Shown here piece by piece: positions 19,760 to 61,982 of a stretch of DNA of 64,000 bases. The stretch covers positions 151,547 to 215,546 of the forward strand of contig CALCZR010000059.1 of assembly GCA_937903325.1 (NCBI GenBank), in the 5' to 3' direction. Both the position numbers and the translations under genes were made by a program. The notes beneath the pieces are model-generated. The model saw nothing but the letters and a program-made list of their open reading frames with translations, ran no database searches and was not told the DNA's origin. The DNA is from an uncultured Candidatus Saccharibacteria bacterium. Its GTDB lineage: Bacteria > Patescibacteriota > Saccharimonadia > Saccharimonadales > AWTP1-31. How positions within the stretch are numbered: the stretch's first letter is position 1; every line of letters begins with the position of its first letter.

Positions 19760-20758
19760 TTAGATTTTAGACTTTTGTGCCCAGACCCAAGCATCTCTGA
19801 CGGCATCCTCGGTAGTTTTAGTAGCGTGCCAGTCAAGTTCTTGCTGTGCTTTATCGGCGATAGCGTAGTAGGCAGTGGGATCACCGGCACGTCGCTCACC
19901 TAAGACACGTGGAACGGTTACATTATTGACTTTCTCAAACGAGCGGATAAGTTCCAAGACGCTGGTAGGGTTACCAGTTCCAATATTGTATATGTGGAAC
20001 CCTGCTTTGCCGTGATCCAGAGCTGCGACATGAGCCTTGGCTAGGTCTACCACATGGATATAGTCGCGCAAACAAGTGCCGTCCGGCGTAGGATAGTCAG
20101 TGCCGTATACCGTAAGTGGCGGAATCTTACCAGTTGTTGCCTGTACGATAATAGGCAACAGGTTTTGTGGCTTGCCCTTGGGCAGCTCACCAATCTTGGC
20201 TGATTCGTGGCCGCCCACAACATTGAAATAGCGAAGCGCTGTTCCGGATATCTCCGGATTGGCAGCACATAGGTCACGCAGTACAATCTCATTCATGTAC
20301 TTCGACCAACCATATGGTGACTCGGGGGCACAGGGAGTTTCTTCAGTGACGGTGTCACTAGGTGGATTACCGTACACTGCAGCGGTAGACGAGAATATAA
20401 ACTGCCTAATGCCCGCTTGCTCGCTTGCCTGAAGCAACTGGATAAAGCCCGCAACATTATTGTCGTAATACTTAAGAGGGTCCAGAACTGATTCACCGAC
20501 GGCCTTAAAGGCAGCAAAGTGGATGATGGCATCAATAGATTCATCCTGGAATATACGCGTTAGCAGAGAAGTATCCTGGAAGTCACCTTCATAAAAGGTC
20601 GGCTTGGTGCCGGTAATTGCCGCAATTCCATCAAGCACAGACGTATCTGAGTTGCTCAGGTTATCCAGTAGTACCGGACGATACCCTGCATTTAGTAGCT
20701 CTACCGTCGTATGTGATCCGATGAATCCAAGCCCGCCCGTCACTAATACACTTTTCAT
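19760..20758 (-). CDS. galE: UDP-glucose 4-epimerase
   Basis: MKSVLVTGGLGFIGSHTTVELLNAGYRPVLLDNLSNS...HFAAFKAVGESV...FSSTAAVYG is GalE. The start was set at the internal ATG at 20758; the longest ORF (to 20983) adds 75 non-homologous residues. Confidence 0.85.
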   Translation of the reverse strand: MKSVLVTGGLGFIGSHTTVELLNAGYRPVLLDNLSNSDTSVLDGIAAITGTKPTFYEGDFQDTSLLTRIFQDESIDAIIHFAAFKAVGESVLDPLKYYDNNVAGFIQLLQASEQAGIRQFIFSSTAAVYGNPPSDTVTEETPCAPESPYGWSKYMNEIVLRDLCAANPEISGTALRYFNVVGGHESAKIGELPKGKPQNLLPIIVQATTGKIPPLTVYGTDYPTPDGTCLRDYIHVVDLAKAHVAALDHGKAGFHIYNIGTGNPTSVLELIRSFEKVNNVTVPRVLGERRAGDPTAYYAIADKAQQELDWHATKTTEDAVRDAWVWAQKSKI

Positions 20759-20816
20759 GGTCACTCCGTTTATACTTCTTATACTGCTACAATAAGAGCT
20801 GATAAAAGGGAAGTCA

Positions 20817-21797
20817 ATGAAGCTAGTCGTTGTATCTATTTGTAAGGATGAAGCCAAGACCATTGGTGAATTACTAGATAGAATACCGAGCAAAATACCG
20901 GGGATCACCACCATCGAAAAGTGGGTTATTGACGACGGGAGTACTGACCAGACCGCAGGCATAGCTCGTAAGCACGGTGCCAAGGTTCACGGCGGGGGGA
21001 TTAGTAAAAAGTTGGCGTTTCGATTTCGTGAAGCAGTAGACCTTGCACTTTCCCGCGATGCTGACGTGCTCGTTAATATTGACGGGGATCTACAGTTTGC
21101 ACCCGAAGATATTCCTCAGTTTGTAGCCCCTATCGTTGATGACACAGCCGATTTCGTTGCCGCAGACCGGTTTACTAACCCAACAACTGGCAGCCTGGAG
21201 CGCCCGGCTAATATGCCAGCCGGCAAGTATTACGGTAATAAGCTGGGAGCCTGGGTAACTGGAAAACTCAGTGGCCAGAAGTTTAACGATGTCACTTGTG
21301 GCTTCCGTGCATATAATCGACACGCTCTTGTAGCTATTAATACTAACGGTACGCATACCTATACTCAGGAAACATTCCAAGTCCTAGCCATGAAGCGTAT
21401 GCGTATCCAAGCTGTGCCTGTGCATGTTACCTACTATCCGGATCGGACCTCGCGAGTCGTAACTAGTATCCCGGCGTATGTGGCTTTGAGTGCACTCAAT
21501 ATTTTGCGATCGTACCGAGACTTTGCTCCACTGAGATTCTTTGGCTGGCTCGGTCTACTACCATCTCTTCTAGGCATTCCGTGTCTTATCTTTACAGTCA
21601 TTCACTGGTCTGCAACGGGCGAGCTTAGCCCATACAAATTCGTTGGCTTTCTGGGTGCCTACCTATTTACGCTGAGCCTGATCGTGTGGGCAATCGGGTT
21701 ACTTGCGGATATGCAGGTGCGTTTGCTCAACAACCAAGAAAAAATCTACGAGAGCATTAAAGATATTAAGTACCCACGTAATAAGGACAAGTCCTGA
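20817..21797 (+). CDS. GT2 polyprenol-phosphate glycosyltransferase with C-terminal TM helices
   Basis: VVSICKDEAKTI...WVIDDGSTDQT...NIDGDLQ followed by two C-terminal TM helices is the DPM1/GtrB-like architecture. An RBS (AAAAGGGAAG) lies upstream. Confidence 0.75.
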   Translation: MKLVVVSICKDEAKTIGELLDRIPSKIPGITTIEKWVIDDGSTDQTAGIARKHGAKVHGGGISKKLAFRFREAVDLALSRDADVLVNIDGDLQFAPEDIPQFVAPIVDDTADFVAADRFTNPTTGSLERPANMPAGKYYGNKLGAWVTGKLSGQKFNDVTCGFRAYNRHALVAINTNGTHTYTQETFQVLAMKRMRIQAVPVHVTYYPDRTSRVVTSIPAYVALSALNILRSYRDFAPLRFFGWLGLLPSLLGIPCLIFTVIHWSATGELSPYKFVGFLGAYLFTLSLIVWAIGLLADMQVRLLNNQEKIYESIKDIKYPRNKDKS

Positions 21798-48173: not shown

Positions 48174-49889
48174 ATGCAGAAACAAATATCACCACAATTT
48201 AGCTCAGCCGCTCTGACCGAAAGTATGCACGGCTTAGAAAGAGCTCCGATAGGTATAGAAGACGTTCGCGATCTAGGTCTTAGCTATGAACTCATACCGG
48301 ACGTACTTCTGGACCAGACTATTGGGGAGATTAGAGACGATCTTGAGCGGACTGATAAAGAAGAGAATCCAGATATCTTTTACCAAACATACTTGGAATA
48401 TGGACCAGGCGTTCTCAATGGTCTAAACTATTTGTACCGTACAGCAGATCTTATTACTCTAGCCGCCCAGGATCACTTAGGCCGGGAAGATGAGGTACAG
48501 GCTAAAGTTGAGGCCAACCCAATTCGACAGCATCTTCTAGAGGTGTTTCTTCGGGACAAGTCTCACCACAAAGGTGCACTGATCGCTCATAATGCACCGT
48601 TTACACTCAGGGATATTGCTGCTTTCATAGATACCTATTACGAAGATCTCGATGCCAACGGGCATATGGACGCCGCTCGGGAACGATTGGATACTGCAAA
48701 AGATACATTCCTGAGTGATCTAGATGGCGATGTAGCAGCAGAGCTAATCCCCGACAAGGCAATTAGGGATCAAATAGCCCAGACAGCCAAAGCTAGCCCT
48801 GTGAAACTAATGGACCCCCTTACCTGGATGCTAACAGATCTAAGCAATACTGAAGACACATGGGGTGGGTTCTACTATGAGGACCGTACAGCGCGTGTTC
48901 TATATCCGCTCGATATTGACCCCGAAGATCCTCTCTTCACCGACCAGTTGCGTCATCACCTATATCACGAGTTGCTTCACTCTGCATTTCTGAAGACATT
49001 TACTCGACAATTCTTGAAAGATCCATCAGCAGAAGGGGAGCTGAAACGTAAATTTCCTTCCTTTCTGGAAGAAGCGGTTGTCGAGAAGATTGCTTTTGTT
49101 GTCTCGTCTCAACATAGCTCCACCAGTGAACGAAACCCTAAGTCTGGCGCTTCCGAAGAAGACTGGCGCTACGATGTTGATGCTCCCGACCACGTATTAA
49201 TGTCGAAAGATTCACCGCACCGTGCTAGCTATGACGAGGCTCTTGAATCACGCGACCAAGTGTATGATTACTATCGTTTAGCGGTCGACATTATATTTGA
49301 CCGTATTGACTGGTCTAAAGCCGGGGTTACTAAGAAGCAGGCGGAAGGGATGTTTGCTCTAGCTTGTTTTGAAACACCACTTGGGGAGATGCCCCGACAA
49401 GAAGATCGACATCCTTTACGCAAATCATTCTTTGCAACGCTTCGCAAGGCTGGTGGTGCGGGACTTATTAATCGTGTCGATCAAGCTATTGAAAGCATTG
49501 GCTTATTTCGAGCGCTTAGCCTGCTGCAGAATCCAGACGTGGATATTACCTCAATAGAGGAGTTTCCAGCTACGGTCTCTGCAGAAAAATACGCTGAGTC
49601 GGTTCAGCGTGTTAACAACATTGTTAACACTAAGTTTGGAGCAATAGAGAACAATGGTGAGGATGCCGAGGTAGGTGAACTTGAAGAGGCTGAAGCGAAG
49701 GCCCGTGTTGTTAGTGAAAGATATCGGCAGCGCATTGACCATACGCAGAATATTATTGATCGGCAAGATGTAACGCTCGGCGTTAGAAATTACGTACGCG
49801 GACCTGCCCGACCAGACCAGCCAAGAGGATCGGTCCCGCCTCGACCTTTTGTGCAGCAAAGACGGAGAGGAATACTTGGGGACTCTTGA
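48174..49889 (+). CDS. Hypothetical cytoplasmic protein with HEXXH motif (possible zinc metallopeptidase)
   Basis: The 571-aa product has LYHELLHSAF (HELLH) with Glu residues 20-25 aa downstream, and no signal peptide. Confidence 0.5.
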   Translation: MQKQISPQFSSAALTESMHGLERAPIGIEDVRDLGLSYELIPDVLLDQTIGEIRDDLERTDKEENPDIFYQTYLEYGPGVLNGLNYLYRTADLITLAAQDHLGREDEVQAKVEANPIRQHLLEVFLRDKSHHKGALIAHNAPFTLRDIAAFIDTYYEDLDANGHMDAARERLDTAKDTFLSDLDGDVAAELIPDKAIRDQIAQTAKASPVKLMDPLTWMLTDLSNTEDTWGGFYYEDRTARVLYPLDIDPEDPLFTDQLRHHLYHELLHSAFLKTFTRQFLKDPSAEGELKRKFPSFLEEAVVEKIAFVVSSQHSSTSERNPKSGASEEDWRYDVDAPDHVLMSKDSPHRASYDEALESRDQVYDYYRLAVDIIFDRIDWSKAGVTKKQAEGMFALACFETPLGEMPRQEDRHPLRKSFFATLRKAGGAGLINRVDQAIESIGLFRALSLLQNPDVDITSIEEFPATVSAEKYAESVQRVNNIVNTKFGAIENNGEDAEVGELEEAEAKARVVSERYRQRIDHTQNIIDRQDVTLGVRNYVRGPARPDQPRGSVPPRPFVQQRRRGILGDS

Positions 49890-49950
49890 CAATACCATAA
49901 GCGTGATATACTAGAAGTGTTACTAACTAAAACAAATACAATAAAATCAA

Positions 49951-50262
49951 ATGAGCTTACTTACAGACCTCACCCTTGCATATGAAACCCTTGCTGACGA
50001 TCCCATTGAAGTGGGTATCCATTACGGCAAGTCTATTCTTCGTGCCCTATCACCGAGTAGCTCTAGCTCAGTTTCATCTTCTGATTCTCACAAATCTAGT
50101 TCTAGTCCTGTTAGTCTTGCCCGAGTCGCATCGCGCATCCAAATTAATCGAACAGTCCGTCGCAGTGTCGCACCTACTGAGGTCCCACGTGCTAGTTACC
50201 TGAACTATGCAACACGCCGACCAGTTGGGTATACCCAGCGTAATCTCGTTGGTGCTTTGTAG
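49951..50262 (+). CDS. Hypothetical Ser-rich small protein
   Basis: The 103-aa ORF has an ATG start and a low-complexity Ser tract. Confidence 0.4.
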   Translation: MSLLTDLTLAYETLADDPIEVGIHYGKSILRALSPSSSSSVSSSDSHKSSSSPVSLARVASRIQINRTVRRSVAPTEVPRASYLNYATRRPVGYTQRNLVGAL

Positions 50263-50317
50263 TAACCCTAACTTATGCAGTCATTGCTTGTCAGTCATTC
50301 AATATATGTACAGAAAT

Positions 50318-50350
50318 AAAAAGAGGACCGCAACGGCCCTCTTTTGCTGT
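50318..50350. terminator. Bidirectional rho-independent terminator between convergent genes
   Basis: A GAGGACCG-CAA-CGGCCCTC hairpin is flanked by an A-run on the 5' side and TTTTGCTGTT on the 3' side. Confidence 0.55.
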
Positions 50351-50361
50351 TAAGAAGAAAG

Positions 50362-50868
50362 CTACTTCTTAACTTGGTTGGCTTGGATAGCCTTTACGAC
50401 TTGTCCGTCGTCTTTGAGGTTTTCCCAGAAGAGAACTTGCTTGCTCTCGATGTACATAACGTCATCTGGGCCGTGCAGCTCACTACCGAGCTTAGCGAGT
50501 GAGAGGTTCTGGTCTTTGTTTTCTTGAGTAGCCTGCTGCTCACCTTGGACGTCTTGCTGAACTTGCAAGTAGTAGATGTTCTTTAGGGTGTAGCCAGTGC
50601 CGCTAATCTTGTCGATCTTACCAAAGTAGACTTGGCCGTTGGTTAGGAAAACTGCTTGGTACTTATCTTTGTTAATCTTTCCAGCGAATTCGTTACCCAT
50701 GAGACTCTTCTTAGCAAAGAATCCACCGACGAGAACAACAAGTAGCACGATAACGATTACGATTGCCTTAACGGCGTGTTTTGGTCGTCGGCTGCGGACG
50801 GCGCTGATTGGTGAGCTCGCAGGTGCTTGCTGGCCAGAATTTTGTGAACGTTTAACAACTTGATCCAT
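50362..50868 (-). CDS. Membrane-anchored hypothetical protein
   Basis: The 168-aa product has a single N-terminal TM helix (AIVIVIVLLVVLVGGFF). Confidence 0.5.
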   Translation of the reverse strand: MDQVVKRSQNSGQQAPASSPISAVRSRRPKHAVKAIVIVIVLLVVLVGGFFAKKSLMGNEFAGKINKDKYQAVFLTNGQVYFGKIDKISGTGYTLKNIYYLQVQQDVQGEQQATQENKDQNLSLAKLGSELHGPDDVMYIESKQVLFWENLKDDGQVVKAIQANQVKK

Positions 50869-51008
50869 GAAATTTTATCTCCCTCACTTCATATAAATGG
50901 TCATAGTCAGTGTAGCTCAAAATAAAACCACAAGCAACGAGCGGAATCAACATATCGCCGCTCCAACAGATATGGTAGTATTGGAGCATAAGTATTTTCA
51001 GGAGATTT

Positions 51009-51845
51009 GTGCGACGACATAAAGCAATCTTGGTGGCAATTGTTTTAATGGCAGTTTCTGCTCTTAGTTTGCTGGTTCCTGAATTAGCCCAAGCTGCTCA
51101 AACGTCGACTTCACAAGGCTTCAAGATCAACACTGCAGTGAGCGAAGGTGCGCTGGTGAGTATCGATCAAAAGGATTCCCAAGCCGTGGAGATGGCCAGT
51201 CTTTCCAGTCGTGACGCCATGGTCGGGGTCGCAGTTAGTAATGGCCAGGCACTTGTTACTTTTAGCGATGGATCTGGGAGAGTGCAGGTAGTAAGTAGCG
51301 GACAGGCCCCGACACAAGTCTCTACTGCGAATGGAAATATTAAAAAGGGTGACCGCTTGAGCATCTCACCCATTAGCGGAGTAGCCATGAAGGCTAGTAG
51401 TGCCGGTAAAGTTATTGGTGTGGCTCAACAGGATTTTAATGGCACCGAGTCTAAAGACAAAAAGTCAGTAGAGTTAACCGACAGTGCCGGGCAAAAGAAA
51501 ACAGTGCAGGTGGGCAAGGCGGTTGTGGAAGTATCGGTCGAAGAGTGGGCGCCGAATGGCCAGCCGAACAGCCCACTGCTCAATAATCTGCGTAGTTTCT
51601 TAGGCACCACTGTTGGTAAACCAGTTAGTAACGTCCAAGCGGTCATGGCGGTAGCGGTTGTATTGTTTGCTATCCTCGCCTCCGGTATTATTCTGTATAG
51701 TTCGGTGTCATCGAGTATTCATTCAATTGGGCGGAATCCGTTATCTAAAGGGATTATCCGACGTAGTTTGTTTGTCATGATCGGTCTGTCGGTTATTGTG
51801 GTTGTTGGTGCGGCATCGGCAGTGTATTTAATTCTAGGGGGCTAA
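51009..51845 (+). CDS. Secreted-domain protein with C-terminal ATP synthase c-subunit-like hairpin
   Basis: A signal peptide and a roughly 190-aa domain precede a C-terminal 70 aa that aligns to c-subunit helix-loop-helix: GRNPLSKGIIRRSLFVMIGLSVIVVVGAASAVYLIL versus E. coli [37 protein letters not shown]. The Asp61 position is Val. Confidence 0.5.
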   Translation: MRRHKAILVAIVLMAVSALSLLVPELAQAAQTSTSQGFKINTAVSEGALVSIDQKDSQAVEMASLSSRDAMVGVAVSNGQALVTFSDGSGRVQVVSSGQAPTQVSTANGNIKKGDRLSISPISGVAMKASSAGKVIGVAQQDFNGTESKDKKSVELTDSAGQKKTVQVGKAVVEVSVEEWAPNGQPNSPLLNNLRSFLGTTVGKPVSNVQAVMAVAVVLFAILASGIILYSSVSSSIHSIGRNPLSKGIIRRSLFVMIGLSVIVVVGAASAVYLILGG

Positions 51846-51849
51846 AAGG

Positions 51850-52467
51850 GTGTTTGATGTACGGTTTGTAGGAGCTATCGGGTGTCTGGTTATCGCCGGT
51901 ATTGCTCTTATTCTCCTGATGCGTGAACGTACCTGGGCACGAGATAAATACCGAAAAGAGCTCAAGATGACTATCTTGCAGCCCGACTTTATTGCCAGTC
52001 TCCGTAAAGAACTAGAGAAAGACGTCCAAACTCATGTTAAGGCAGCCATAGCACCGCTGACCAAAGAGGTGGGTGAAGTAGTAGCAGATGCCAAAAAGCA
52101 AACCCTTGCTAATCTTGACGAAAGCCTCAAGGAAAATCGAGCAGCCTTGCGTGAGGCGACTGAAGAGCAAGTTGCAGTTATCAAAAACCTGGTGGCCGGG
52201 GATGCTGGTTCCTTGCAACAGAGTATGGTGACCTTACAGAAAGACATCGAAGACCTGCAGCAAGAACACCAAGCCGTGCTGGCCGATTACCGAACCAAGG
52301 TACTTGCCCGAGTAAAAACACTTGTTGACGAGCAGGCTGCAGATCTTCTGGCGGATTACCTACAAAGTAGCCTGCAAGGCCTAGAGCTTGGTGACCAACA
52401 GGAATTTATCTTAGCTCGTCTCGATGCTAACAAAGACGCGCTATTCAAGGAGCTCGGTAATGACTAG
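51850..52467 (+). CDS. atpF: ATP synthase b-subunit-like protein
   Basis: A single N-terminal TM helix and a long coiled-coil sit between the c-like and delta-like genes in a 205-aa product. Confidence 0.5.
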   Translation: MFDVRFVGAIGCLVIAGIALILLMRERTWARDKYRKELKMTILQPDFIASLRKELEKDVQTHVKAAIAPLTKEVGEVVADAKKQTLANLDESLKENRAALREATEEQVAVIKNLVAGDAGSLQQSMVTLQKDIEDLQQEHQAVLADYRTKVLARVKTLVDEQAADLLADYLQSSLQGLELGDQQEFILARLDANKDALFKELGND

Positions 52468-52906
52468 GTCGGCTATTACTATTCCGGTATCTATTGCCAC
52501 ACTCGAGCAACTCAAGCACTTGTTGACTGAGCTGGATATTGCGCTGTCTAGCAAGCGAACCAAAAGGTCGTTATCTGCAGATTTACAAGCAGCACTGCAA
52601 GAGAATGGCATAGACTCACTAACGGCCCAAACTACCGCCCAACTTCGCTCGGCAGTAAGTGACCTCATTGCACAGCTACCGGTGGTGAAAGTAGTCACTG
52701 CCCAGCCACTCGAGAACGCCCAACAAGCCTCTATCCAGAAGTGGTTTACCAGTAATATTGCCCGTAGAGTTATCTTGAGCTTCAAGACAGATTCGAGCTT
52801 GCTCGCCGGAGTTATTCTGCAAACACCAGAAAACCGTTACGACTTTTCATTGCAAGCAGGACTGTCTACCGGCCGCGCCTTACTAGCTAAGCGGGTGGCC
52901 GCGTGA
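52460..52906 (+). CDS. atpH: ATP synthase delta (OSCP)-like subunit
   Basis: The C-terminus RVILSFKTDSSLLAGVILQTPENRYDFSLQAGL fits the delta-subunit pattern. The ATG at 52460 overlaps the atpF stop by 8 nt, and the stop overlaps the atpA start. Confidence 0.5.
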   Translation: MTRSAITIPVSIATLEQLKHLLTELDIALSSKRTKRSLSADLQAALQENGIDSLTAQTTAQLRSAVSDLIAQLPVVKVVTAQPLENAQQASIQKWFTSNIARRVILSFKTDSSLLAGVILQTPENRYDFSLQAGLSTGRALLAKRVAA

Positions 52907-54315
52907 GCCAGCTGTTTAATCGTCTGGTGGCAGCCAATATGCCGGTTGGTGAAATCGTGGCGGCTAACCGTTTTATCCTGACGGTCACTGGTATGCCAGG
53001 CATCATGCTGGGTAGTCAGGTGGTGACCGAAGACGGAAACTTAGGTTTTGTTCGCAGTATTGCCGACGAACTCGTGACAGTGGATCTACTGACTAGTGAA
53101 AACGCGGTTGTTGGTAGCGGCATTGTTATGTACAAGCCAGAGCTGACCATTGCTCCCAGCCGTTCCTTACTCGGTCGAGTTGTTGACCCCCTCCTAAAAG
53201 GGCTCGATGGTGGATCGCCTATTCTGTCTAAGGAATCATATCCGGTGTTTGCACCGGCTCCGACGTTTGCAGAGCGTGTCATGTTGAATCAGCAGCTGGA
53301 GACAGGTGTTACCGTAGTAGACACTTTGTTCCCGATTGTCATGGGACAGCGTATTGCCATTATGGGGGATGCTAAGTCTGGTAAGACCAGCTTTGCAGCC
53401 CAAGCGGCTGTTAACCAAGCTCGCATAGGGCGCATTGTGGTATTTGTACTCATAGCTAAACGTAAGACAGATGTCGAACAACTTGTAGATTACCTTGAAA
53501 CCAATGGTACTCTCAAGAACACTGTCATTATCGTGGCCGACAGTCTTGCCGCCTTGCCGCTGGCGTTCCTGGCACCATATTCCGGTGCGGCGGTGGCCGA
53601 ATACTTCTGGCACAATGATTCGGACGTCGTAATTATCTACGACGATCTGGCTAGCCACGCCAAAGTCTACCGAGAGATGTCACTACTCGGCGACGCTTCA
53701 CCGGGCCGTGAATCATATCCTGGGGACATGTTCTACCGACATTCGTCACTCCTGGAACGAGCGGGCAAGCTCAAGGTTAACCAGCGATCGTTGTCGGCCC
53801 TGCCAATTATGACTACTAGCAACAACGACATAACCAGTCACTTATCTACCAGTCTTATTTCTATTACTGACGGACAGATTATCTTTGACACCGAGGAAAT
53901 GCAGAAGGGTGCCACACCACCGGTTAATGTGGGCTTAAGTGTTTCGCGTGTTGGTGGTCGTGCGCAAGAAAGTATGCAAAAGGCTATGGCTCAGGATATC
54001 TTTACGACGCTGGCCTCCTACCGACAAGCAAGTGAGTTTGCACACTTTGGCCAAGAACTACCCGACCAGTACCGTCAGGCACTGCGACTGGGTGATCGAA
54101 TCCGGACATTCTTTAACCAGGCTCCTAACGAATTCTTTACGTTGCCCGAACAGCAGGTCATGCTCAAGACGGCATTTCTGGCAGGTGACAAAATGCTGGA
54201 CATGCCAGCTATTAAGAAGGCGGTGAAGAAGGCGGTGAATAGTGCCTTGGCCTCTGAGACACACAGTGATCTAGCCCAGAAGATGGTTGAAAAGCACGTG
54301 GAGCATAAATCATGA
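52903..54315 (+). CDS. atpA: F1 ATP synthase alpha subunit (divergent)
   Basis: LLGRVVDPL...VDTLFPIVMGQRIAIMGDAKSGKTSFAAQAAVNQ carries a Walker A of GDAKSGKT against the canonical GDRQTGKT, and DELS is replaced by DDLA. The product is 470 aa. Confidence 0.85.
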   Translation: MSQLFNRLVAANMPVGEIVAANRFILTVTGMPGIMLGSQVVTEDGNLGFVRSIADELVTVDLLTSENAVVGSGIVMYKPELTIAPSRSLLGRVVDPLLKGLDGGSPILSKESYPVFAPAPTFAERVMLNQQLETGVTVVDTLFPIVMGQRIAIMGDAKSGKTSFAAQAAVNQARIGRIVVFVLIAKRKTDVEQLVDYLETNGTLKNTVIIVADSLAALPLAFLAPYSGAAVAEYFWHNDSDVVIIYDDLASHAKVYREMSLLGDASPGRESYPGDMFYRHSSLLERAGKLKVNQRSLSALPIMTTSNNDITSHLSTSLISITDGQIIFDTEEMQKGATPPVNVGLSVSRVGGRAQESMQKAMAQDIFTTLASYRQASEFAHFGQELPDQYRQALRLGDRIRTFFNQAPNEFFTLPEQQVMLKTAFLAGDKMLDMPAIKKAVKKAVNSALASETHSDLAQKMVEKHVEHKS

Positions 54316-55163
54316 ATGCCCATACCCGAATCCTCAAAGACGAACTCCAAACTGTACGGGTCATAGAGGACCTAACGGAAGTGTTCCAGAACACTTCCAG
54401 CGTAAAGATCCGCTCTATTCGGAAGCAGGTGTTAAGTTCCAAAATGTTCTACAACGACCTGTGGGATATTTACCAACAACTTAGAACTGAAACGCGCATA
54501 TCGCTACGGGATGCAGCGAGTAGTGACAAAGAACTATTTCTGTTTATCGCTTCTCCGGCGGGGTTGGCGGGGCAGAACGATGAGCAGATTATGCGTGACC
54601 TCAAAGAACACTACAACCCCGCCCGCCAAGACGTGGTGGTTATTGGCTCGCACGGAGCCCAACTGCTCAAACAGCATGGCATTAAGCCGGTTAGGGCTTT
54701 TGAAGTGCCGGACATTACTAAAGACTTTTCAGTGACACCGATCGTCGATATTATCCGTTCCTACGAAACAGCCGTAGCTTTTTATGACGCCTATCTTTCA
54801 TTAACTACCCAGCAGTCTGCCAAGCGTCAGTTCCTACTGGAAGCCCAACAGCTAACAGATGAAGAGCGGGCATTAATCGAAACGGGCGAGGCTGAGATTA
54901 TTGCATCCGGTAACTACATTTTCGAGCCGTCACTTGAGGTAGCGATCTTAACTTTGGAGCAAACTATGTTGTATACCACCGTCACGCAGTTGCTACTGGA
55001 ATCACGTCTGGCGCAGCTGGCTAGCCGCTTTACCAACATGACATTGGCTCATGAACGTGCAGTGAAGCAGCGCAAGAAAACCTTCCTAGAATTTTTATCG
55101 AGTAAGCGTACCGAACGCGACGAACTAACACGGCAAATTACCATTGCAGCAAGGGGGGTATAG
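54312..55163 (+). CDS. atpG: F1 ATP synthase gamma subunit
   Basis: The 283-aa ORF sits between alpha and beta with ATGA overlaps on both sides and has conserved N- and C-terminal helices. Confidence 0.65.
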   Translation: MNAHTRILKDELQTVRVIEDLTEVFQNTSSVKIRSIRKQVLSSKMFYNDLWDIYQQLRTETRISLRDAASSDKELFLFIASPAGLAGQNDEQIMRDLKEHYNPARQDVVVIGSHGAQLLKQHGIKPVRAFEVPDITKDFSVTPIVDIIRSYETAVAFYDAYLSLTTQQSAKRQFLLEAQQLTDEERALIETGEAEIIASGNYIFEPSLEVAILTLEQTMLYTTVTQLLLESRLAQLASRFTNMTLAHERAVKQRKKTFLEFLSSKRTERDELTRQITIAARGV

Positions 55164-56572
55164 TGGCTGCTAAAACACATGCTGGGCAAGTCGGGTATAT
55201 TCGTTCACTGAATGATCTGTTTGTTGTTATTCGACTAACCAGCGAACAGCGGCCCGGAGCTGGGCAGACCCTCACTATTGTTGATAAGCCGGAGGTGATA
55301 CTCTTGGTTGAGGCCTCCACTGAAGATACCGTCTACTGTCTGAACATTTTTGGTTCACCAAACATCCAACAGCATGACGTTGTATTGATCGGTGACCAGT
55401 CAATTATGTTGCCGTCTGGCCAATCTGTTTTGGGGCGAGTATTTGATTCAATGGGTCGAGTGATTGACGGTGAAGGAGACTTCAAGGGCGGACACAAGCT
55501 GCCAATGCGTACGGTTGTTAAGCAGCAGCTGGGCAAGAAGAATAAGCCCGAAGTTTTGGAAACAGGTATCAAGGTTATTGATTTCCTAGCTCCCTTCGTG
55601 AAAGGCCGGCGTATCGGCATTATAGGTGGTGCGGGTGTCGGTAAAACAGTATTAACCACCGAAATGATGCACAACGTGGCCGACAAGAAAGCAGCACTCA
55701 GCTTCTTTGTCGGTATTGGTGAGCGTATCCGTGAAGGGCACGAACTATACCATACCCTTAAGGACCGCGGGCTCGGTGAATCGACCGTCATGTTCATGGG
55801 GCAGATGAACGAAAACGCTGCGCTCCGTTCACTGGTTGGTCCGTCCGCCGCAACGGTGGCCCACTCATTTACCGAACAGGGTAAGGACGTACTGTTCTTC
55901 GTTGATAACATCTACCGTTTTGTGCAGGCTCGTAATGAACTGGCTGCCATGCGTGGTACCACGCCAAGTGAGGGTGGCTACCAGGCTAGTCTGTTCTCGG
56001 ATTTGCACCGTTTCGAAGATTCACTTCATGCCACTGAAAAGGGAAGTATTACGTCTATCCAGTCCATCTTTATCCCGGCAGATGACCTCAGTGATCCGGC
56101 GGTAGTCGAGATTAGCCAACAACTTGACTCCACTATTGTGCTGTCTCGTGATGTCTTTGAGCGCGGTATATTCCCGGCGGTTGATCTACTTAACACCACG
56201 AGCTCACTCATCACCCCAGAGATACTCGGAGAACGCCACTTTAACCTTGTGGGCCGAGTTAAGGCCGTGATGCGTAAGTACTACAGTCTGCGTACCATTA
56301 TTGCTATTGTCGGTGAAAGTGAGTTGTCACCAGAGGATCGACTAGACTACGAACGGGCTCAAGAACTCACCCAGTTCTTCTCGCAGCGTATGTTTGTAAC
56401 AGAAGACCTCAGCGGTAAAAAAGGCGAGTACTTTACCCGCGAGCAAACCCTGAAGGGTGTTGAAAAGATCCTAAATGGTACCAGCACGCCAGCGCCAACA
56501 GAACCACCAAAGGAAGAAGCCGAAGCCAATACGGCACAGGCCGATACTACCAATGAAGCACCTCACAGCTAA
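55163..56572 (+). CDS. atpD: F1 ATP synthase beta subunit
   Basis: GGAGVGKTVLTTEMMHNV (Walker A) and VLFFVDNIYRFVQARNELAAMRG...DDLSDPA are present. Confidence 0.95.
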   Translation: MAAKTHAGQVGYIRSLNDLFVVIRLTSEQRPGAGQTLTIVDKPEVILLVEASTEDTVYCLNIFGSPNIQQHDVVLIGDQSIMLPSGQSVLGRVFDSMGRVIDGEGDFKGGHKLPMRTVVKQQLGKKNKPEVLETGIKVIDFLAPFVKGRRIGIIGGAGVGKTVLTTEMMHNVADKKAALSFFVGIGERIREGHELYHTLKDRGLGESTVMFMGQMNENAALRSLVGPSAATVAHSFTEQGKDVLFFVDNIYRFVQARNELAAMRGTTPSEGGYQASLFSDLHRFEDSLHATEKGSITSIQSIFIPADDLSDPAVVEISQQLDSTIVLSRDVFERGIFPAVDLLNTTSSLITPEILGERHFNLVGRVKAVMRKYYSLRTIIAIVGESELSPEDRLDYERAQELTQFFSQRMFVTEDLSGKKGEYFTREQTLKGVEKILNGTSTPAPTEPPKEEAEANTAQADTTNEAPHS

Positions 56573-56816
56573 CCCCGAGCTTACCGTAAAAGCCTATTCC
56601 ATGAAGGAAGTCATGTTTGAGGGCAAGGCTTTTTCGTTATCTGCTGCTAACAAAATTGGACCACTCGATGTGCTTCCTGGACACGCCAATATGCTCGCCA
56701 TATTAACCGACTGCACAGTGGTCATTGAGACTGAACAGGGTGAGAAGACATTTCAAATCGATAACGGCATTCTGAAGGTTTCTAGTAACCAAGTTTCGCT
56801 GTTTATTAATCTCTAG
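56553..56816 (+). CDS. atpC: F1 ATP synthase epsilon subunit (N-terminal beta-sandwich only)
   Basis: ELTVKAYSMKEVMFEGKAFSLSAANKIGPLDVLPGHANMLAIL fits the epsilon N-terminal domain. The 87-aa product has no C-terminal helical hairpin. The ATG at 56553 overlaps atpD by 20 nt. Confidence 0.6.
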   Translation: MKHLTANPELTVKAYSMKEVMFEGKAFSLSAANKIGPLDVLPGHANMLAILTDCTVVIETEQGEKTFQIDNGILKVSSNQVSLFINL

Positions 56817-56852: not shown

Positions 56853-59800
56853 ATGTATAAGCATGAGCACAGTACTATGAGGGTTATTGGCACACGTACG
56901 GTGCACAGAATACGGGCAGGGGTTACCCGACTGTTTCCTATACTTAAAACCATACTGGCCATTGGTGTTCCATCGCTTGTCGTGTTGGGTGTCAGTTGGA
57001 TACCTTTAACGCAGCGTCTGTATAACAACTTAGACCAAGCACCGAGCCAAATCTCTAACACTAGTGTCTCGTCCTATCTACTTGTCTCTACGGTCATCGC
57101 TCTAGGAATTGGTATTGCTCTGTATCTGCTTATTGACTATCGGCAACACCGAAAACCCCTTAAAGTTGCTATGCCGACGATTCGCTACAACCTCCGGCAC
57201 CACGTTCGAGTGGTAACATTACCATTAGCACGGAGTAAGTGGAAGGTGCTTACATTCAGTACTGTAAAGGGGCTTGCTAGCTTTGCACTGGTGGGGGTGG
57301 CGATTGTTTTTGGGGTGCAGCACCTTGCTCAAGCAAAGAATTTTGACATTACTATTGCCGGTGACGGTGCCGGAAGATTTGTTGCATTCACGCCAACACC
57401 AAAAATTAGAGGGACCGCCGCGCCAAATAGCGTACTGTCCGTTACCGTGGACAACACGCTGGTGGGCACGACAACAGTTAACACTAAAGGTCAGTGGGTG
57501 TACCAGCCAACTTCTAATCTCTCCATTGGTGAGCATAGTATCAAGGTAAGTTCCTTTGAGTCAGGAAAATACACATACATGGAGAGCGACCAAGGGTTGG
57601 CTGTCATTAATACGCTGGAGCATCGTGTCTCTGGCAATATACCATTACCCATGGACGTTATAAGCGAAGCCGGTAACCCTACTAATAAAACGACAACGGT
57701 AGCCACTCAGACAGTTGCCGGAAAAGTCTACGCCCTGTCAGCGCCTAATACTAACGGTGGAACTCCGAACTTTAGCAGTGGTTATGTAACAATAGTTAAT
57801 GCAGCTGATGGGACGGTTATTAAAAACCTCGCGCTATCTTTTCGTCCGTCGGTTCTTTCTGTCAGCCCAGATGGGCTGAGGGTTGTGGTGGTCGGCAGTA
57901 GTTCAGATAATAATGGACAGGAGCAGGCAACCAATATAGCTATTGTGGATGTCGCGAGCGACGAATTTTCAGGATCGGTCATATCGCTTGAAAAGCGTTA
58001 CTTTCTGACTAACGATCCTTGGCAGGGTCTATTTAGTCATGACCCAACGGTGTACCTGATCCGGACTGCCCATATGTTTTACTCCATAAATCTCGATACT
58101 GGTTCGGTCGCACAGCTTGACCTGACCACCTACACTTTCAACGACACGTATCGAATGGGCAGCCTCAAAGTTAATCTGGCACACAACAGTAACACGGTGT
58201 ATCTGCTAGGCGATGAAGTGGTCATCAAAGTTGACCTCGATAGCTTTACGGTTGTTTCAGACATCGATACCCACGATGGCTTTATCTATACCACGCCTAC
58301 TGCGGCTTTTATAACTAACGACGACAGTAAATTGATCTACCTGGATGCACGCACGACTGCCGGTAGTGGGGTCAGACGGATGATTACAATCGATCTAAAT
58401 ACAGAGACCATACTGACTCCACTACTATTGAACGATACTATGCGATTGCCAGATGAAATAATAACTGACAGTGCGCAGCACAAGGCATATTTTGTCTTTG
58501 AAGATGACAGTAACCAACAAATTGCGGCAGAGATTGTTGTAGCTGACCTGGTAAACAATGTCTTGCTCGCTCCTATCCCTCTTACTGATAATTATTACAG
58601 CCCGGGCAGAACTTTGTACTCCTCGCCGGTAGATCCTGATATCGCCTACTACCTTGATAATATTGAGAGTGATCAAACCACAGGCAACGTGTATGAACTT
58701 AACTTAGTTACTGGTGCGTCTGAGCTTATTTCAGAGATTCCCAGCTATAACATTGGGTTTACGCAGGCAGCAGGGGATACCTATCTGTTCTATGATGGAC
58801 GAGTTAATAACGAAATCGGTCTTACATACATCATGCGTAATATAACTACTGGGACGAACTATACGCTCGCATCGCCTTTTAATACCCAGCTATACACAAC
58901 ACAGCTTAGTAGCAGCGCTACTGCAACGCAATCCAGTACTGCTGAGAAGACCATACAGTTTACGGTGGCTACAGTGAGTATTACTGAGCCTTTGCCGCAG
59001 ACTCCAATTATGGGCACGAGCTACACGTTGCACGGCAAGGCATTGGCAGGGTATCAAGTCGAAGTCTTAGTTGGCGATGAGTCTAAGGGTGTTACGACAA
59101 CGGATCAAAATAATGACTGGTCCATGGAGGTCACCGGCCTAACGCCTGGCGATATTGATATAACCGCTCGGGCTAGTCTTGATTCTGTCGGTATCCCTAT
59201 ATTCTATATTTCTGCTGATTACAGCATAACTGGCTTCCATGTGTACAACGTGGAGAAAGACCAAGTGGAAGTGCATGACGATACTAACTTTGGAGGGAGT
59301 GTCCCTATCATAACGACACCTGACGGTAGTGTATCTTTTACGCTCGATTTGACACACCTTTACGAAAACCAAGGTGAAGGGCTAATACACAAATACAACA
59401 TTGTAACGAAGCAGAACGAGGGCGATCTCATTTTACCTGATGAGTATGTCGACGAGATATTCTCCAATAGCATGAACTTCTTCTCCGAAGACGGAAAGCT
59501 CCTATACTTTCTTGACTCCGACGACACCGACAGCTTTCTGGCGCTTGATGTAGAGACACTTACGTATACCCAGGCAAGCCTTGGTATAAACAGTAATGAC
59601 TTCAGTATCTCCTATGGGGATATGCAGCAGGTTTCCCAAAGTGCCGATAGGCGATATGTGTATCTACCAGGATGGGAAGACAATTCGATACATGTGCTCG
59701 ACACCAACACTAAGCAGATGCAGGTAATCACTGTTGGCAGGACGGTAGGGGCGGTTATGACTCCGGCTCCAGGCTATATCGTTGCCGTAGTAGGAGATTA

Positions 59801-61982
59801 CGACCAATTCAATAGCTCTGTTCTGAATATTGATGGGCTCAAAGTATTGAGTACAGATGACTATAGCCTTTTGGGTGACGTGCCACTTTCGTCATCGGAC
59901 TATCGGGATATTGACCTCTACCAGCGTCAGAACAAGCTATTTGTAGTCCCACGAAACCAGGACTCTGACTTTACGAGCATGCCGATAGTTAACACCAGTA
60001 ACTGGTCAATTATCGATACGGTTTCCCTAGAATCACCGGGCTACTCCAATGGTTCGAGCGGGACAGCTTTTGGTGCGGGCTTTAGTGCAGACGGCAGTGT
60101 TGGCTTTTGGTTCTCTAGTACCGATAACTTGATTCATCGGTTCGATACAAGTGATGGCCATGCTCTAGCAAATGTGGAGCTCCCGACTATGATCGATGCC
60201 ATTTATCCTGCCCCAGATAGTGCGGATGAATATGGATTCCGTCTGCATGATAACAGCTTTGGTATCTACAACATTGCGACGAATACTATAGGTGACATTA
60301 TTCAAGCCGGGCTTTCGGGGTTTGCAGGTGCTGACATCTTTAACAATACGACGCTGAGATATTTCAAGGGATTTGTAGCAGCTGAAACAACCGTCCAATT
60401 CACCGTCCAAGATGGTGATCCTGAAGATCCACCAGTGACTCCTCCGACGCCGACTACTCCTACCACTCCCACGACCCCTACTACGCCTACACAATCCACC
60501 ACACCTCGTCGTACTCCGCAGCCAACCACTAACCCAAACCAAACTTCTCAGCAACCCGAAACGGTAGTGCCAGACATACCAGTTACACAGCAGTATACCG
60601 GTGGTATTACGGAGTTGCCGGTTGCAAAAGCAGAAGTTAAAAAACCATTCATCTCCGAGCCGTTGGCCCGTGCTTTGTCGTGGCTACTGCTCCTTATCTT
60701 GCTCATTCTCGCCATCCTATATGGACGACGAGCCCGCAGGGAATACCTGGTACGCAAGCAACTCGAGCAAAGCCTGGCGCACCTCCGTGGCATGAAGCAA
60801 GCAGCCGACAGCTATCTGGAAATCACCACACACTATCTCAATACACCGGTGGCCATTATGAACGGGGCGGTGGAGTTGCTGGTATCACTCAAGAAGCTTC
60901 CGGACTGGGCGATACAACGACTGCAAGCTGAGCTCAAGAAATACGGTGATTCGGTGGCTCGTCTGAGTGCGGCAAGTCAGACTATGTCCGTTGCGCAACC
61001 AGAGGTGACGGGCACGGTTATGAGCGCTGCAGTTGCACGAACGAGCCCACTCAAACAGCGAGCGGTATGGCTGCCCATTAGCATTGTTGTGGGGCTCTTT
61101 GGGCTTGTTTCGGTGCTGTTCGCATTCACGGGTGTGTACTCACTGGGCAGTGTGCAATTTGGTTTGCAACTACTCTGCCTGGCATTGACTGCTGGGTTGA
61201 TCGTAACGGCGCAGCGCAGCAAAGACATTCAGCTTGCGGCGCAGGAAGCGGCGCGAAGTGCGGCTAATACAGAAAAAGATTTGATACGGAAACGTGAGGT
61301 ATTCTTACAGCAATCTTCGACGGTTCTTGCGGAGCACCACGAGAACCTGACGATAATCAGTAAAGACCTGCACGTTATACCGGAAACCAGAACCTTCTAT
61401 AACGGTCTGGGCATGCTTGGTCAGATGGTGCAAAGTCTTAGCAAGGTTGGCCGATTCAGTAACACGACGGCCGATGCACCAATACTTGATCTGGGGCAGG
61501 AAATACCGCGGGCACTTGCTGCACTGCAAAGCAAAGCTACTGAAAAGCAGGTGCAACTGCAACTGGATATTCCTGCTAGTTTGAATCTGGCAATTCAGCC
61601 GCAAGAGCTAAGCCAGCTGGTGCAGTCACTAACCGACAACGCCCTGATATTCAGTAAACCAAATGGCCGGGTCACGTTGTCTGCACAGGGATCTGGCAAC
61701 TGGATTATGCTTAAAGTGATCGACGCTGGTAGTGGTATTGAGCCCGAGCGTCTCGCACACATCTTCGAACCGTTTTATAGGGCTACAGACGCTGAGACGT
61801 TTAACTACGAAGGTCTAGGGCTTAATCTCCATGTCGACAAGCTTGTCGTCGAGAAGCTCGGCGGCACCATTGACCTCAAGAGTAGCCGTACTGGCACTAC
61901 CGTAACTCTGCGGTTGCCAGCATCTCAGCTCACGAAGCTTGAGGCTCCAATGTTGGTTGCTCCAGTGCCCGCAGCTGGCTAG
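56853..61982 (+). CDS. Giant 1709-aa membrane protein: Ig-like plus YVTN-like beta-propeller ectodomain, PT linker, membrane-embedded histidine kinase
   Basis: Three N-terminal TM helices are followed by Ig-like segments and beta-propeller repeats (VLSVSPDGLRVVVVG...IAIVDVASDEF; NSIHVLDTNTKQMQVITVG). A PT linker (TPPTPTTPTTPTTPTTPT) and a TM helix lead into H-box-like ITTHYLNTPVAIM, a TM hairpin, a second H-box-like LAEHHENLTII, an N-box DNALIF, G1 VIDAGSGIEPERL and G2 GLGLNL. Confidence 0.8.
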   Translation: MYKHEHSTMRVIGTRTVHRIRAGVTRLFPILKTILAIGVPSLVVLGVSWIPLTQRLYNNLDQAPSQISNTSVSSYLLVSTVIALGIGIALYLLIDYRQHRKPLKVAMPTIRYNLRHHVRVVTLPLARSKWKVLTFSTVKGLASFALVGVAIVFGVQHLAQAKNFDITIAGDGAGRFVAFTPTPKIRGTAAPNSVLSVTVDNTLVGTTTVNTKGQWVYQPTSNLSIGEHSIKVSSFESGKYTYMESDQGLAVINTLEHRVSGNIPLPMDVISEAGNPTNKTTTVATQTVAGKVYALSAPNTNGGTPNFSSGYVTIVNAADGTVIKNLALSFRPSVLSVSPDGLRVVVVGSSSDNNGQEQATNIAIVDVASDEFSGSVISLEKRYFLTNDPWQGLFSHDPTVYLIRTAHMFYSINLDTGSVAQLDLTTYTFNDTYRMGSLKVNLAHNSNTVYLLGDEVVIKVDLDSFTVVSDIDTHDGFIYTTPTAAFITNDDSKLIYLDARTTAGSGVRRMITIDLNTETILTPLLLNDTMRLPDEIITDSAQHKAYFVFEDDSNQQIAAEIVVADLVNNVLLAPIPLTDNYYSPGRTLYSSPVDPDIAYYLDNIESDQTTGNVYELNLVTGASELISEIPSYNIGFTQAAGDTYLFYDGRVNNEIGLTYIMRNITTGTNYTLASPFNTQLYTTQLSSSATATQSSTAEKTIQFTVATVSITEPLPQTPIMGTSYTLHGKALAGYQVEVLVGDESKGVTTTDQNNDWSMEVTGLTPGDIDITARASLDSVGIPIFYISADYSITGFHVYNVEKDQVEVHDDTNFGGSVPIITTPDGSVSFTLDLTHLYENQGEGLIHKYNIVTKQNEGDLILPDEYVDEIFSNSMNFFSEDGKLLYFLDSDDTDSFLALDVETLTYTQASLGINSNDFSISYGDMQQVSQSADRRYVYLPGWEDNSIHVLDTNTKQMQVITVGRTVGAVMTPAPGYIVAVVGDYDQFNSSVLNIDGLKVLSTDDYSLLGDVPLSSSDYRDIDLYQRQNKLFVVPRNQDSDFTSMPIVNTSNWSIIDTVSLESPGYSNGSSGTAFGAGFSADGSVGFWFSSTDNLIHRFDTSDGHALANVELPTMIDAIYPAPDSADEYGFRLHDNSFGIYNIATNTIGDIIQAGLSGFAGADIFNNTTLRYFKGFVAAETTVQFTVQDGDPEDPPVTPPTPTTPTTPTTPTTPTQSTTPRRTPQPTTNPNQTSQQPETVVPDIPVTQQYTGGITELPVAKAEVKKPFISEPLARALSWLLLLILLILAILYGRRARREYLVRKQLEQSLAHLRGMKQAADSYLEITTHYLNTPVAIMNGAVELLVSLKKLPDWAIQRLQAELKKYGDSVARLSAASQTMSVAQPEVTGTVMSAAVARTSPLKQRAVWLPISIVVGLFGLVSVLFAFTGVYSLGSVQFGLQLLCLALTAGLIVTAQRSKDIQLAAQEAARSAANTEKDLIRKREVFLQQSSTVLAEHHENLTIISKDLHVIPETRTFYNGLGMLGQMVQSLSKVGRFSNTTADAPILDLGQEIPRALAALQSKATEKQVQLQLDIPASLNLAIQPQELSQLVQSLTDNALIFSKPNGRVTLSAQGSGNWIMLKVIDAGSGIEPERLAHIFEPFYRATDAETFNYEGLGLNLHVDKLVVEKLGGTIDLKSSRTGTTVTLRLPASQLTKLEAPMLVAPVPAAG
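60436..60540 (+). repeat. Low-complexity Pro/Thr-coding tract (CC/AC-rich) within giant gene
   Basis: ACTCCTACCACTCCCACGACCCCTACTACGCCTACA encodes the (TPT) linker. Confidence 0.5.

Follow-up and report, generated by a model that had tools for sequence, protein, structure and literature searches.

A predicted giant six-transmembrane receptor histidine kinase of Candidatus Saccharibacteria with a conserved signalling chassis and a variable ectodomain

The stretch of DNA analysed here, referred to as the window, is 64,000 nucleotides long and comes from an uncultured Candidatus Saccharibacteria bacterium (contig CALCZR010000059.1). Close to its 3′ end, at positions 56853..61982 of the plus strand, it carries a gene for a giant six-transmembrane (TM) receptor histidine kinase of 1709 aa. 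The protein belongs to a family in which a conserved chassis surrounds a swappable, fast-evolving ectodomain. The chassis consists of an N-terminal module of three TM helices and, on the far side of the ectodomain, a fourth TM helix (TM4), a helical hairpin with the histidine, a pair of TM helices (TM5/TM6), a second hairpin devoid of a conserved histidine, and the catalytic and ATP-binding (CA) domain. The ectodomain cassette sits between TM3 and TM4 and differs between paralogs. With moderate confidence, the protein is read as an orphan receptor histidine kinase for an external ligand, probably one on the surface of a host cell. Its family was found only in Candidatus Saccharibacteria in the genomes scanned. 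All coordinates refer to the plus strand of the window unless stated otherwise.

The CA domain covers residues ~1545-1691 (61485..61925), and Pfam HATPase_c matches residues 1583-1691 with E=1.3e-20 (74.4 bits vs a cut-off of 26.4). The motifs DNAL, DAGSGI and GLGLNL, quoted in the original prediction made from the sequence of the window, are all present in this domain as the N box (N1596), the G1 box (D1624, G1626 and G1628) and the G2 box (G1654 and G1656), together with an F box, F1638-E-P-F1641. Conservation was counted over 167-177 family sequences, and N1596 and G1626 are both kept in 177/177, D1624 in 172/177. The family profile matches kinases of the PDB over the CA domain with E values down to 2e-26, and the NCBIfam kinase models match the CA part only.

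The histidine predicted to accept the phosphoryl group lies in helical hairpin A (60723..60992), located between TM4 and TM5. This hairpin is of the dimerization and histidine phosphotransfer (DHp) type and contains the H-box 'ITTHYLNTPVAIMNGAVELL', in which the motif 'ITTHYLNTP' holds H1327 (codon 60831-60833). In 31 aligned family C-termini, the segment between TM4 and TM5 follows the invariant pattern 'ITTH-Y-L-N-T-P-(V/A/L)-A-I-M-x-G-A-(V/I)-E-L-L'. H1327 is kept in 166/167 sequences, T1331 in 160 and P1332 in 162 of the same 167. When the hairpin A profile was aligned by hhalign to 95 canonical HisKA H-box segments, it reached 96.9% (E=1.5e-10), with H1327 placed on the phospho-acceptor histidine; the hairpin also aligns with the H-box in SrrB and in HK853. 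The CA domain and the H-box place the giant kinase among the class I histidine kinases, with the activity predicted from sequence. The arrangement typical of this class is departed from twice, as the hairpin with the H-box does not adjoin the CA domain in the chain, and the residue at H+1 is not acidic.

The separation of the two parts is seen in several comparisons. SrrB and HK853 are matched by the family profile in two stretches, the H-box and helix 2 with the CA domain, which are adjacent in these two proteins and ~160 positions apart in the giant kinase. The distance from H1327 to N1596 is 269 residues and includes TM5, TM6 and the second hairpin. In the AlphaFold2 model of residues 1260-1709 (six-sequence alignment, predicted local distance difference test (pLDDT) 71.5), TM4 is one continuous helix up to the histidine, and a return helix, which completes hairpin A, and a disordered linker come next. 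These are followed by TM5 and TM6, a 70-residue helix continuous with TM6 that forms hairpin B with its own return helix, and an alpha/beta CA domain. Hairpin B (residues ~1456-1535, 61218..61457) is a DHp-like scaffold beside the CA domain that has no conserved histidine, and in the profile alignment its second helix pairs with helix 2 of the SrrB DHp. Foldseek superimposes ~215-246 columns of the model on the whole DHp+CA cores of ZraS (TM-score 0.72), HK853, WalK and DivL. Since these alignments are sequential, they must comprise hairpin B and the CA domain.

The TM5-TM6 hairpin (residues ~1405-1455, 61065..61217) lies between the H-box hairpin and the CA domain, with hydropathy peaks of 2.48 and 1.86 and helices in the AlphaFold2 model. 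It is conserved throughout the family, with W1406 and P1408 nearly invariant. According to the profile alignments and the model, the equivalent of DHp helix 1 with its histidine and the CA-bearing DHp equivalent are thus predicted to be two hairpins, split by a TM hairpin. The description of the protein as a membrane-embedded histidine kinase stands; the stalk and TM helix were also said to lead straight into a DHp/CA module, and here hairpin A, TM5/TM6 and hairpin B intervene. A second H-box within hairpin B was considered and rejected: the hhalign comparison to the H-box profile gave 0.7%, and His1495, in the helix before the CA domain, is kept in 57/175 sequences.

The Kyte-Doolittle hydropathy profile contains six strong hydrophobic segments, not four as first proposed, at residues ~30-52, 73-95, 136-157, 1268-1290, 1405-1427 and 1433-1455. 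The first three are the N-terminal helices that had been anticipated. Basic residues flank the segments on their cytoplasmic sides, namely at the N-terminus, in loop 96-135, in 'RRARRE' after TM4 and in 'QRSK' after TM6, which gives a consistent topology with residues 158-1265 outside. The N-terminal three-TM module (residues 1-158, start 56853, end 57326) is supported by hydropathy and by conservation in the family. Its TM2-TM3 loop is cytoplasmic, conserved and basic/His-rich, and the module is kept in members with unrelated ectodomains (phmmer E 1e-8 to 1e-23); it has no match in Pfam. Only a few residues link TM3 to the ectodomain, and the way back to TM4 is a stalk of ~75 residues (residues 1189-1262, 60417..60638; 'DPEDPPVTPPTPTTPTTPTTPTTPT...'), in which P, T, S and Q make up 65% of the residues, in line with the Pro/Thr stalk first described. 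A P/T-rich stretch ahead of TM4 is also present in the consensus of 20 family members. TM4 itself (residues ~1268-1290, 60654..60722) has a hydropathy peak of 2.67.

The genome scan covered one genome per species, and the full-length C-terminal module was found only in metagenome-assembled genomes of Candidatus Saccharibacteria. In all 27 Saccharibacteria loci with the module, it is located at the end of the open reading frame (ORF), and the 22 ORFs not truncated by a contig end are 1695-2833 aa long. Four paralogs (L007, L008, L044 and L053), encoded by genes of 5-7 kb, lie on a single 698-kb contig, and another genome has three. A profile search against 1.84 billion representatives of 50%-identity clusters retrieved at least 150 proteins at E<1e-56, most of them matching over the whole module and most of them 1200-4413 aa long. 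The window protein is therefore unusually large among sensor kinases in general, as proposed, and not within its own family, where members reach 4413 aa and it stands near the small end of the giants. The elements shared by the family, in order, are the N-terminal three-TM module, a variable ectodomain, the Pro/Thr stalk, TM4, the H-box hairpin, TM5/TM6, the second hairpin and the CA domain. All of them are present in the window protein and can be aligned with 30 relatives.

Such conservation of the chassis is accompanied by the exchange of the ectodomain. A Pfam scan of 20 giants found HATPase_c in 20/20, and the ectodomain families were fn3 (14), DUF285 (5), NHL (4), PKD (4), SBBP (4) and Glug (2), with Big_13 only in the window protein and L007. 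The ectodomain type of the window protein is rare and occurs besides only in L007, P0001, P0002, P0176 and a fragment, P0145. Three of these are full-length colinear homologs of the giant kinase, L007 (1695 aa), P0001 (1645 aa) and P0176 (1711 aa). A search for homologs with the ectodomain on its own returned an unrelated Ig-repeat adhesin as the sole find.

The ectodomain is an all-beta region of ~1100 aa between TM3 and the stalk. It was modelled by AlphaFold2 over residues 159-1184 from a three-sequence alignment, with a mean pLDDT of 52, which is a low confidence. The strands of the model fall into four groups: a sandwich at ~184-252, ~29 strands at ~284-673, a sandwich at ~702-775 and ~28 strands at ~796-1148. 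Ig-like domain 1 (residues ~181-252, 57393..57608) shows beta strands in the model and comes just short of the Pfam Big_13 threshold (PF19077, E=1.2e-5) at 181-233, with 26.1 bits vs a cut-off of 27 in the window protein and 30.7 bits in the ortholog L007. It resembles the Ig repeats of the BapA/LapF-type adhesins P0009 and P0144. Ig-like domain 2 (residues ~702-775, 58956..59177) is based on the alignment of the two ectodomain halves by hhalign and on a weak Big_7 match at the corresponding position in L007.

The two larger groups of strands are predicted beta-propellers. Propeller 1 (residues ~284-673, 57702..58871) would have roughly seven blades, an approximate number, with a pLDDT of 50-80, and propeller 2 covers residues ~796-1148 (59238..60296). 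The best PDB matches of the ectodomain model found by Foldseek are all tandem beta-propeller proteins (E ~1e-15, low TM-scores), among them doublet-microtubule WD proteins, Utp proteins, Apaf-1, LRP2/LRP6 and Sevenless/ROS1. Propeller matches of sub-threshold strength were obtained with TIGR03866 (E=1.8e-4, at ectodomain 769-950) and SGL (E=0.014). The model thus supports a predicted beta-propeller fold and does not support a blade number. Aligned against each other by hhalign, half 1 and half 2 of the ectodomain gave a probability of 95% (E=2.9e-8, 319 columns), with Ig on Ig and propeller on propeller, and the ectodomain is accordingly a duplicated unit of one Ig-like domain and one propeller. 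The first description of Ig-like segments with propeller blades holds for the Ig and all-beta propeller region; its YVTN label was dropped, as TIGR02276 gave E=4 and 7.5 bits vs a cut-off of 27.85. Neither Reg_prop (PF07494) nor Y_Y_Y (PF07495) has a Pfam match at E<=1 in the window protein.

The uneven rate of change along the protein is visible in the comparison with L007, its syntenic ortholog. At the protein level, the identity is 41% in the N-terminal module, 52-53% in the Ig domains, 27% in propeller 1 and 32% in propeller 2, 64% in TM4 with hairpin A, 55% in hairpin B and 66% in the CA domain. The flanking ATP-synthase proteins are 77-89% identical and the fibre protein encoded downstream 78%. 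The outer propeller parts therefore diverge much faster than the remainder of the locus. Such rapid divergence of the ectodomain sequence fits a surface that tracks a variable partner.

The absence of a response regulator near the gene, at first claimed for 5 kb on either side, extends further. No receiver domain was found among the six-frame ORFs of at least 60 aa in the whole window, either by phmmer with four regulators or with an unfiltered receiver hidden Markov model (HMM; best E=0.65), and the 10-kb flanks of the gene in L007 contain none either. There, the fibre gene of 2794 aa (8.4 kb) and another fibre paralog are the sole genes in the 10 kb downstream, and the atp operon is found in the 6 kb upstream. 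Around 30 relatives, with flanks of up to 10 kb, one receiver was found in 505 kb. This is a stand-alone receiver of ~125 aa in L029 (2265-2690, minus strand), encoded divergently 1.3 kb upstream of a giant kinase whose length, depending on the start codon, is 2384-2412 aa. The receiver HMM detects it with E=2.5e-47, which serves as a positive control. In the supplementary tables of PMC10633639, the annotated regulators of Southlakia epibionticum, a cultivated Saccharibacterium, are stand-alone receivers of 366-393 bp (~120-130 aa), at least one of which is listed with no neighbouring kinase. Small unlinked receivers would therefore be plausible partners of the giant kinases.

In the proposed mechanism, the ectodomain would probably form a rod of two Ig-like domains and two propellers, roughly 15-20 nm long, which passes through the cell wall, and the stalk would be long enough for the return run to the membrane. 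The ectodomain would bind an external ligand, most plausibly a glycan or a protein on the surface of the host cell. Binding or tension would then act on the TM3/TM4 pair and shift the packing of the six-TM bundle. The H-box helix is an extension of TM4 and the CA-bearing helix an extension of TM6, so such a change in packing could affect how easily the CA domain reaches H1327, the residue that would be autophosphorylated. From there, the phosphoryl group would pass to a small stand-alone receiver whose gene lies at another place in the genome. A more speculative step is that hairpins A and B of one chain might form an intramolecular four-helix bundle with one histidine and one CA domain, which would mimic the homodimeric DHp of ordinary kinases. 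The corresponding wider proposal is doubtful: that of a pseudo-dimeric single-chain kinase whose six-TM bundle reads the tension or displacement arising when the long, stalk-tethered ectodomain binds to a host, and which would act as the sensor of attachment and host recognition in epibiotic Saccharibacteria, with cassette swaps and rapid cassette divergence that set or track the host range.

Several observations weigh against the reading as an orphan receptor kinase. Ordinary sensor kinases signal by rigid-body movement, which a long flexible Pro/Thr stalk would transmit poorly. The confidence of the ectodomain model is low (pLDDT 52). HATPase_c and HisKA were both expected from the original prediction, and the first is clearly matched, as described above; HisKA has no match in the Pfam scan of the full-length protein and, run on the isolated hairpin A segment, remains below threshold with 14.2 bits vs a cut-off of 26.9. 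The residue at H+1, Y1328, is a tyrosine kept in 155/167 sequences and not the acidic Glu/Asp of canonical HisKA kinases, so that the autokinase chemistry may differ. Hairpins A and B were also considered as an internal duplication, and this candidate was rejected. They have no detectable similarity (hhalign 1.5% and 0.4%), and a duplication is therefore not claimed.

Other explanations account for part of the same evidence. The protein could be mainly a surface adhesin whose two ends are both membrane-anchored, with a vestigial or non-catalytic kinase part serving as a pseudokinase or scaffold. The ectodomain modules are of adhesin type, with Ig1 like the BapA/LapF repeats and with fn3, PKD, NHL and DUF285 in other members; the acid beside the histidine is replaced by tyrosine; hairpin B next to the CA domain lacks a histidine, like the pseudokinase DivL, its top structural match; and no partner regulator is nearby. 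Against this, the cytoplasmic part is the most conserved one, with H1327 in 166/167 and the N, G1 and G2 residues in 172-177/177 across very divergent members, and the chassis is retained while ectodomains are swapped. Such conservation of the histidine and the ATP site is not expected of a dead kinase, and the adhesin explanation is considered fairly unlikely. An ordinary paired two-component sensor, with its regulator gene located beyond the window, either past the fibre gene or in some other operon-like setting, is unlikely as well. It draws on the fact that only 2 kb downstream of the kinase gene are visible in the window and on the receiver gene 1.3 kb upstream in L029. The surroundings of the gene in L007, with fibre genes over 10 kb downstream and the atp operon over 6 kb upstream, speak against such a pairing, as do 29 of the ~30 related loci (505 kb), which have no receiver within up to 10 kb.

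An active histidine kinase or phosphatase might also have a non-receiver output, acting on another protein or controlling pili, secretion or the neighbouring ATP synthase by contact. Six TM helices could contact other membrane proteins, the wiring is unusual, the gene follows atpC after 36 nt with no terminator-like site between them, and a small single-TM protein is a conserved neighbour in 19/27 related loci. However, the H-box keeps T at H+4 and P at H+5, as HisKA kinases coupled to a regulator typically do, the location behind the atp genes is limited to the window and L007, and the small neighbour is absent from the window; the probability of such an output is low. The idea that the long ORF arose from an assembly or frame error, fusing an adhesin gene with a kinase gene, is very hard to credit. 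It could point to P0002 in L004, where the ORF covers the ectodomain alone and HATPase_c is found in another ORF of 403 aa at a distance of 5 kb, but the insertion of IS1595, Fic/VbhA and integrase genes accounts for this split. The identical colinear architecture in one ORF is shared by more than 25 independent assemblies, and the N-terminal module and C-terminal chassis co-occur across unrelated ectodomains.

The gene itself agrees with the single intact reading frame first reported. It runs from ATG to stop over 1709 codons with no interruption, and the probability of such a stop-free run at the local base composition is ~3e-39. The start codon is uncertain (56853-56879), as a second in-frame ATG is found at codon 9 and homologs can be aligned only from residue ~10-30 on. 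The sequence TAAAAT lies 2 nt ahead of the first ATG. Upstream of the kinase gene is the F1Fo ATP synthase operon, with atpH/atpA/atpG/atpD at 52424-56572 (Pfam OSCP, ATP-synt_ab, ATP-synt) and atpC, its last gene, at 56475..56816 (NCBIfam epsilon subunit), which ends 36 nt before the kinase gene. As no terminator-like site was found between atpC and the kinase gene, co-transcription with the atp operon is possible. A scan for promoters and terminators around the kinase gene gave nothing beyond the shuffled expectation. The order of the atp operon followed by the kinase gene is found only in the window and L007. The L007 locus belongs to a 698,658-bp contig of an uncultured Saccharibacterium and is syntenic with the window in the atp genes, the kinase and the fibre gene. 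By this synteny, the source of the window is a relative of that Saccharibacterium. Further 5′ of the atp genes, at 48174-52467, there are five ORFs (571, 103, 168, 278 and 205 aa) with no Pfam match at E<=0.01; three of them, of 168, 278 and 205 aa, share 68-77% identity with ORFs located where L007 begins.

Downstream of the kinase gene, the 5′ part of a gene for a fibre-like surface protein begins at 62109 and runs off the window at 64000. Its visible part is 78% identical to the first 631 aa of the 2794-aa ORF of L007 (11465-19846), which is followed in tandem by a second fibre paralog (20686-21339). The visible 630 aa have no Pfam match. The complete L007 ortholog contains five CBM_4_9 domains (E=3e-49), a Peptidase_S74 domain (E=1.5e-11), which is an intramolecular-chaperone domain of the tail-fibre/endosialidase type, and a weak match to an H-type lectin. 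These domains justify the label of a fibre-like, carbohydrate-binding surface protein, and the original suggestion of a fibre-like next gene is borne out through them. The further suggestion that the two genes form a surface sensing or adhesion module is weak. The fibre gene adjoins the kinase gene only in the window and in L007, its closest relative, and no fibre homolog was found beside P0001 (L001), P0002 (L004) or any other family member. With the adjacency limited to these two loci, a dedicated kinase-fibre module is unsupported, and the fibre gene is not shown to be a functional partner.

A different neighbour recurs in the family. A small protein of ~160-180 aa adjoins the giant kinase gene in 19/27 related Saccharibacteria loci (L009 2252-2740; L011 4976-5455 and 12013-12564; L012 2877-3353; L010 7580-8083; and 15 further loci). 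This protein carries a single TM helix at its N-terminus and a small C-terminal beta domain ending in '...RIRIQ', and it may be an accessory partner of the giant kinases. No homolog of it was found in this window.

The family also includes shorter members. The subgroup P0258-P0287, of ~610-660 aa, has one N-terminal anchor, a ~170-aa ectodomain and the H-box 'SHYLRTPL', and it keeps the unit of TM, H-box hairpin, TM-TM, hairpin and CA domain of the giants. A subgroup member in L087 (10001-11854, on a 730-kb contig) is followed by DUF5907 and Laminin_G_3 surface-protein genes, with no receiver nearby. P0024, P0025 and P0026 were considered as short stand-alone kinases and rejected, since each is a fragment or miscall of a giant in L008, L011 or L012. 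In L004 (10001-19765), P0002 is an ectodomain-only ORF and the 403-aa HATPase_c ORF lies 5 kb downstream; this homolog appears to have been split by mobile DNA, comprising an IS1595 transposase, a VbhA/Fic toxin-antitoxin pair and an integrase fragment. A family member of 3106 aa, P0189/P0295 (MEI6480714.1), is named only '6-bladed beta-propeller' by NCBI, and the kinase part is thus unannotated in public records. In the Saccharibacteria and Patescibacteria literature, no published description of such kinases was found, and histidine kinases are not mentioned in the text of the main Saccharibacteria genetics paper or of a recent perspective. Two kinase genes of Southlakia in the tables of the supplement are small, 708 and 1554 bp (PMC10633639).

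The interest of these proteins lies mainly in the features of the family and less in the single gene of the window. Saccharibacteria, which are ultrasmall, and other Patescibacteria live attached to host bacteria, and the source organism is probably host-attached as well. We know of no described mechanism by which they sense their hosts. The kinase family occupies a large share of very small genomes and may be how Saccharibacteria sense what they touch. Its exterior is adhesin-like and fast-evolving and its signalling core strictly conserved, as one would expect of a receptor for host recognition. The family is also a natural case of membrane helices placed between the phospho-acceptor hairpin and the catalytic domain. 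Such a placement could reveal how much of the canonical dimeric DHp-CA geometry is required.

Among known systems, the class I HisKA/HATPase_c sensor kinases (HK853, ZraS, SrrB, EnvZ and WalK) are alike in the CA domain with N, G1, F and G2 boxes, in the HisKA-homologous H-box with T at H+4 and P at H+5, in a hairpin and CA domain superimposable on solved DHp+CA cores, and in a TM helix continuous with the signalling helix. Unlike them, the giant kinase has its histidine hairpin separate from the CA-bearing hairpin, with ~160 residues (a linker, two TM helices and a long helix) between the two. It also has tyrosine at H+1, six TM helices, a separate conserved N-terminal three-TM module, an ectodomain 5-10 times the usual size, and no adjacent regulator. 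DivL-type kinases share a DHp-like hairpin with no conserved histidine, as in hairpin B, and DivL is the top Foldseek match; the giant kinase differs in having a genuine conserved histidine in a second hairpin of the same chain, hence it is as a whole probably not a pseudokinase.

The closest precedent for a double-propeller sensor kinase is BT4663 of Bacteroides thetaiotaomicron. Hybrid sensors of this type have two periplasmic seven-bladed beta-propellers and a Y_Y_Y Ig-like spacer, and they sense glycans (PMC5121618). Both systems fuse a very large sensor of two propellers and Ig-like domains to a membrane histidine kinase, and a carbohydrate is the probable ligand in both. The two are not related in sequence: the giant kinase has no match to Reg_prop or Y_Y_Y. 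True members of the BT4663-type family are only weak CA-domain matches among the homologs (P0010, P0013 and P0016). The giant kinase has the order Ig and propeller, twice, lacks a fused receiver or AraC output, has a different membrane and cytoplasmic wiring, and resides in a monoderm Patescibacterium. The BapA/LapF giant adhesins carry Ig repeats similar to Ig1, and they have no kinase. Sevenless and ROS1, with propeller/FN3 ectodomains, are matched by the ectodomain model, as is LRP; their animal Tyr-kinase domains are unrelated, and the likeness is an architectural analogy only, in which a large modular ectodomain, a membrane segment and a kinase form a design common to the giant kinase and Sevenless/ROS1.

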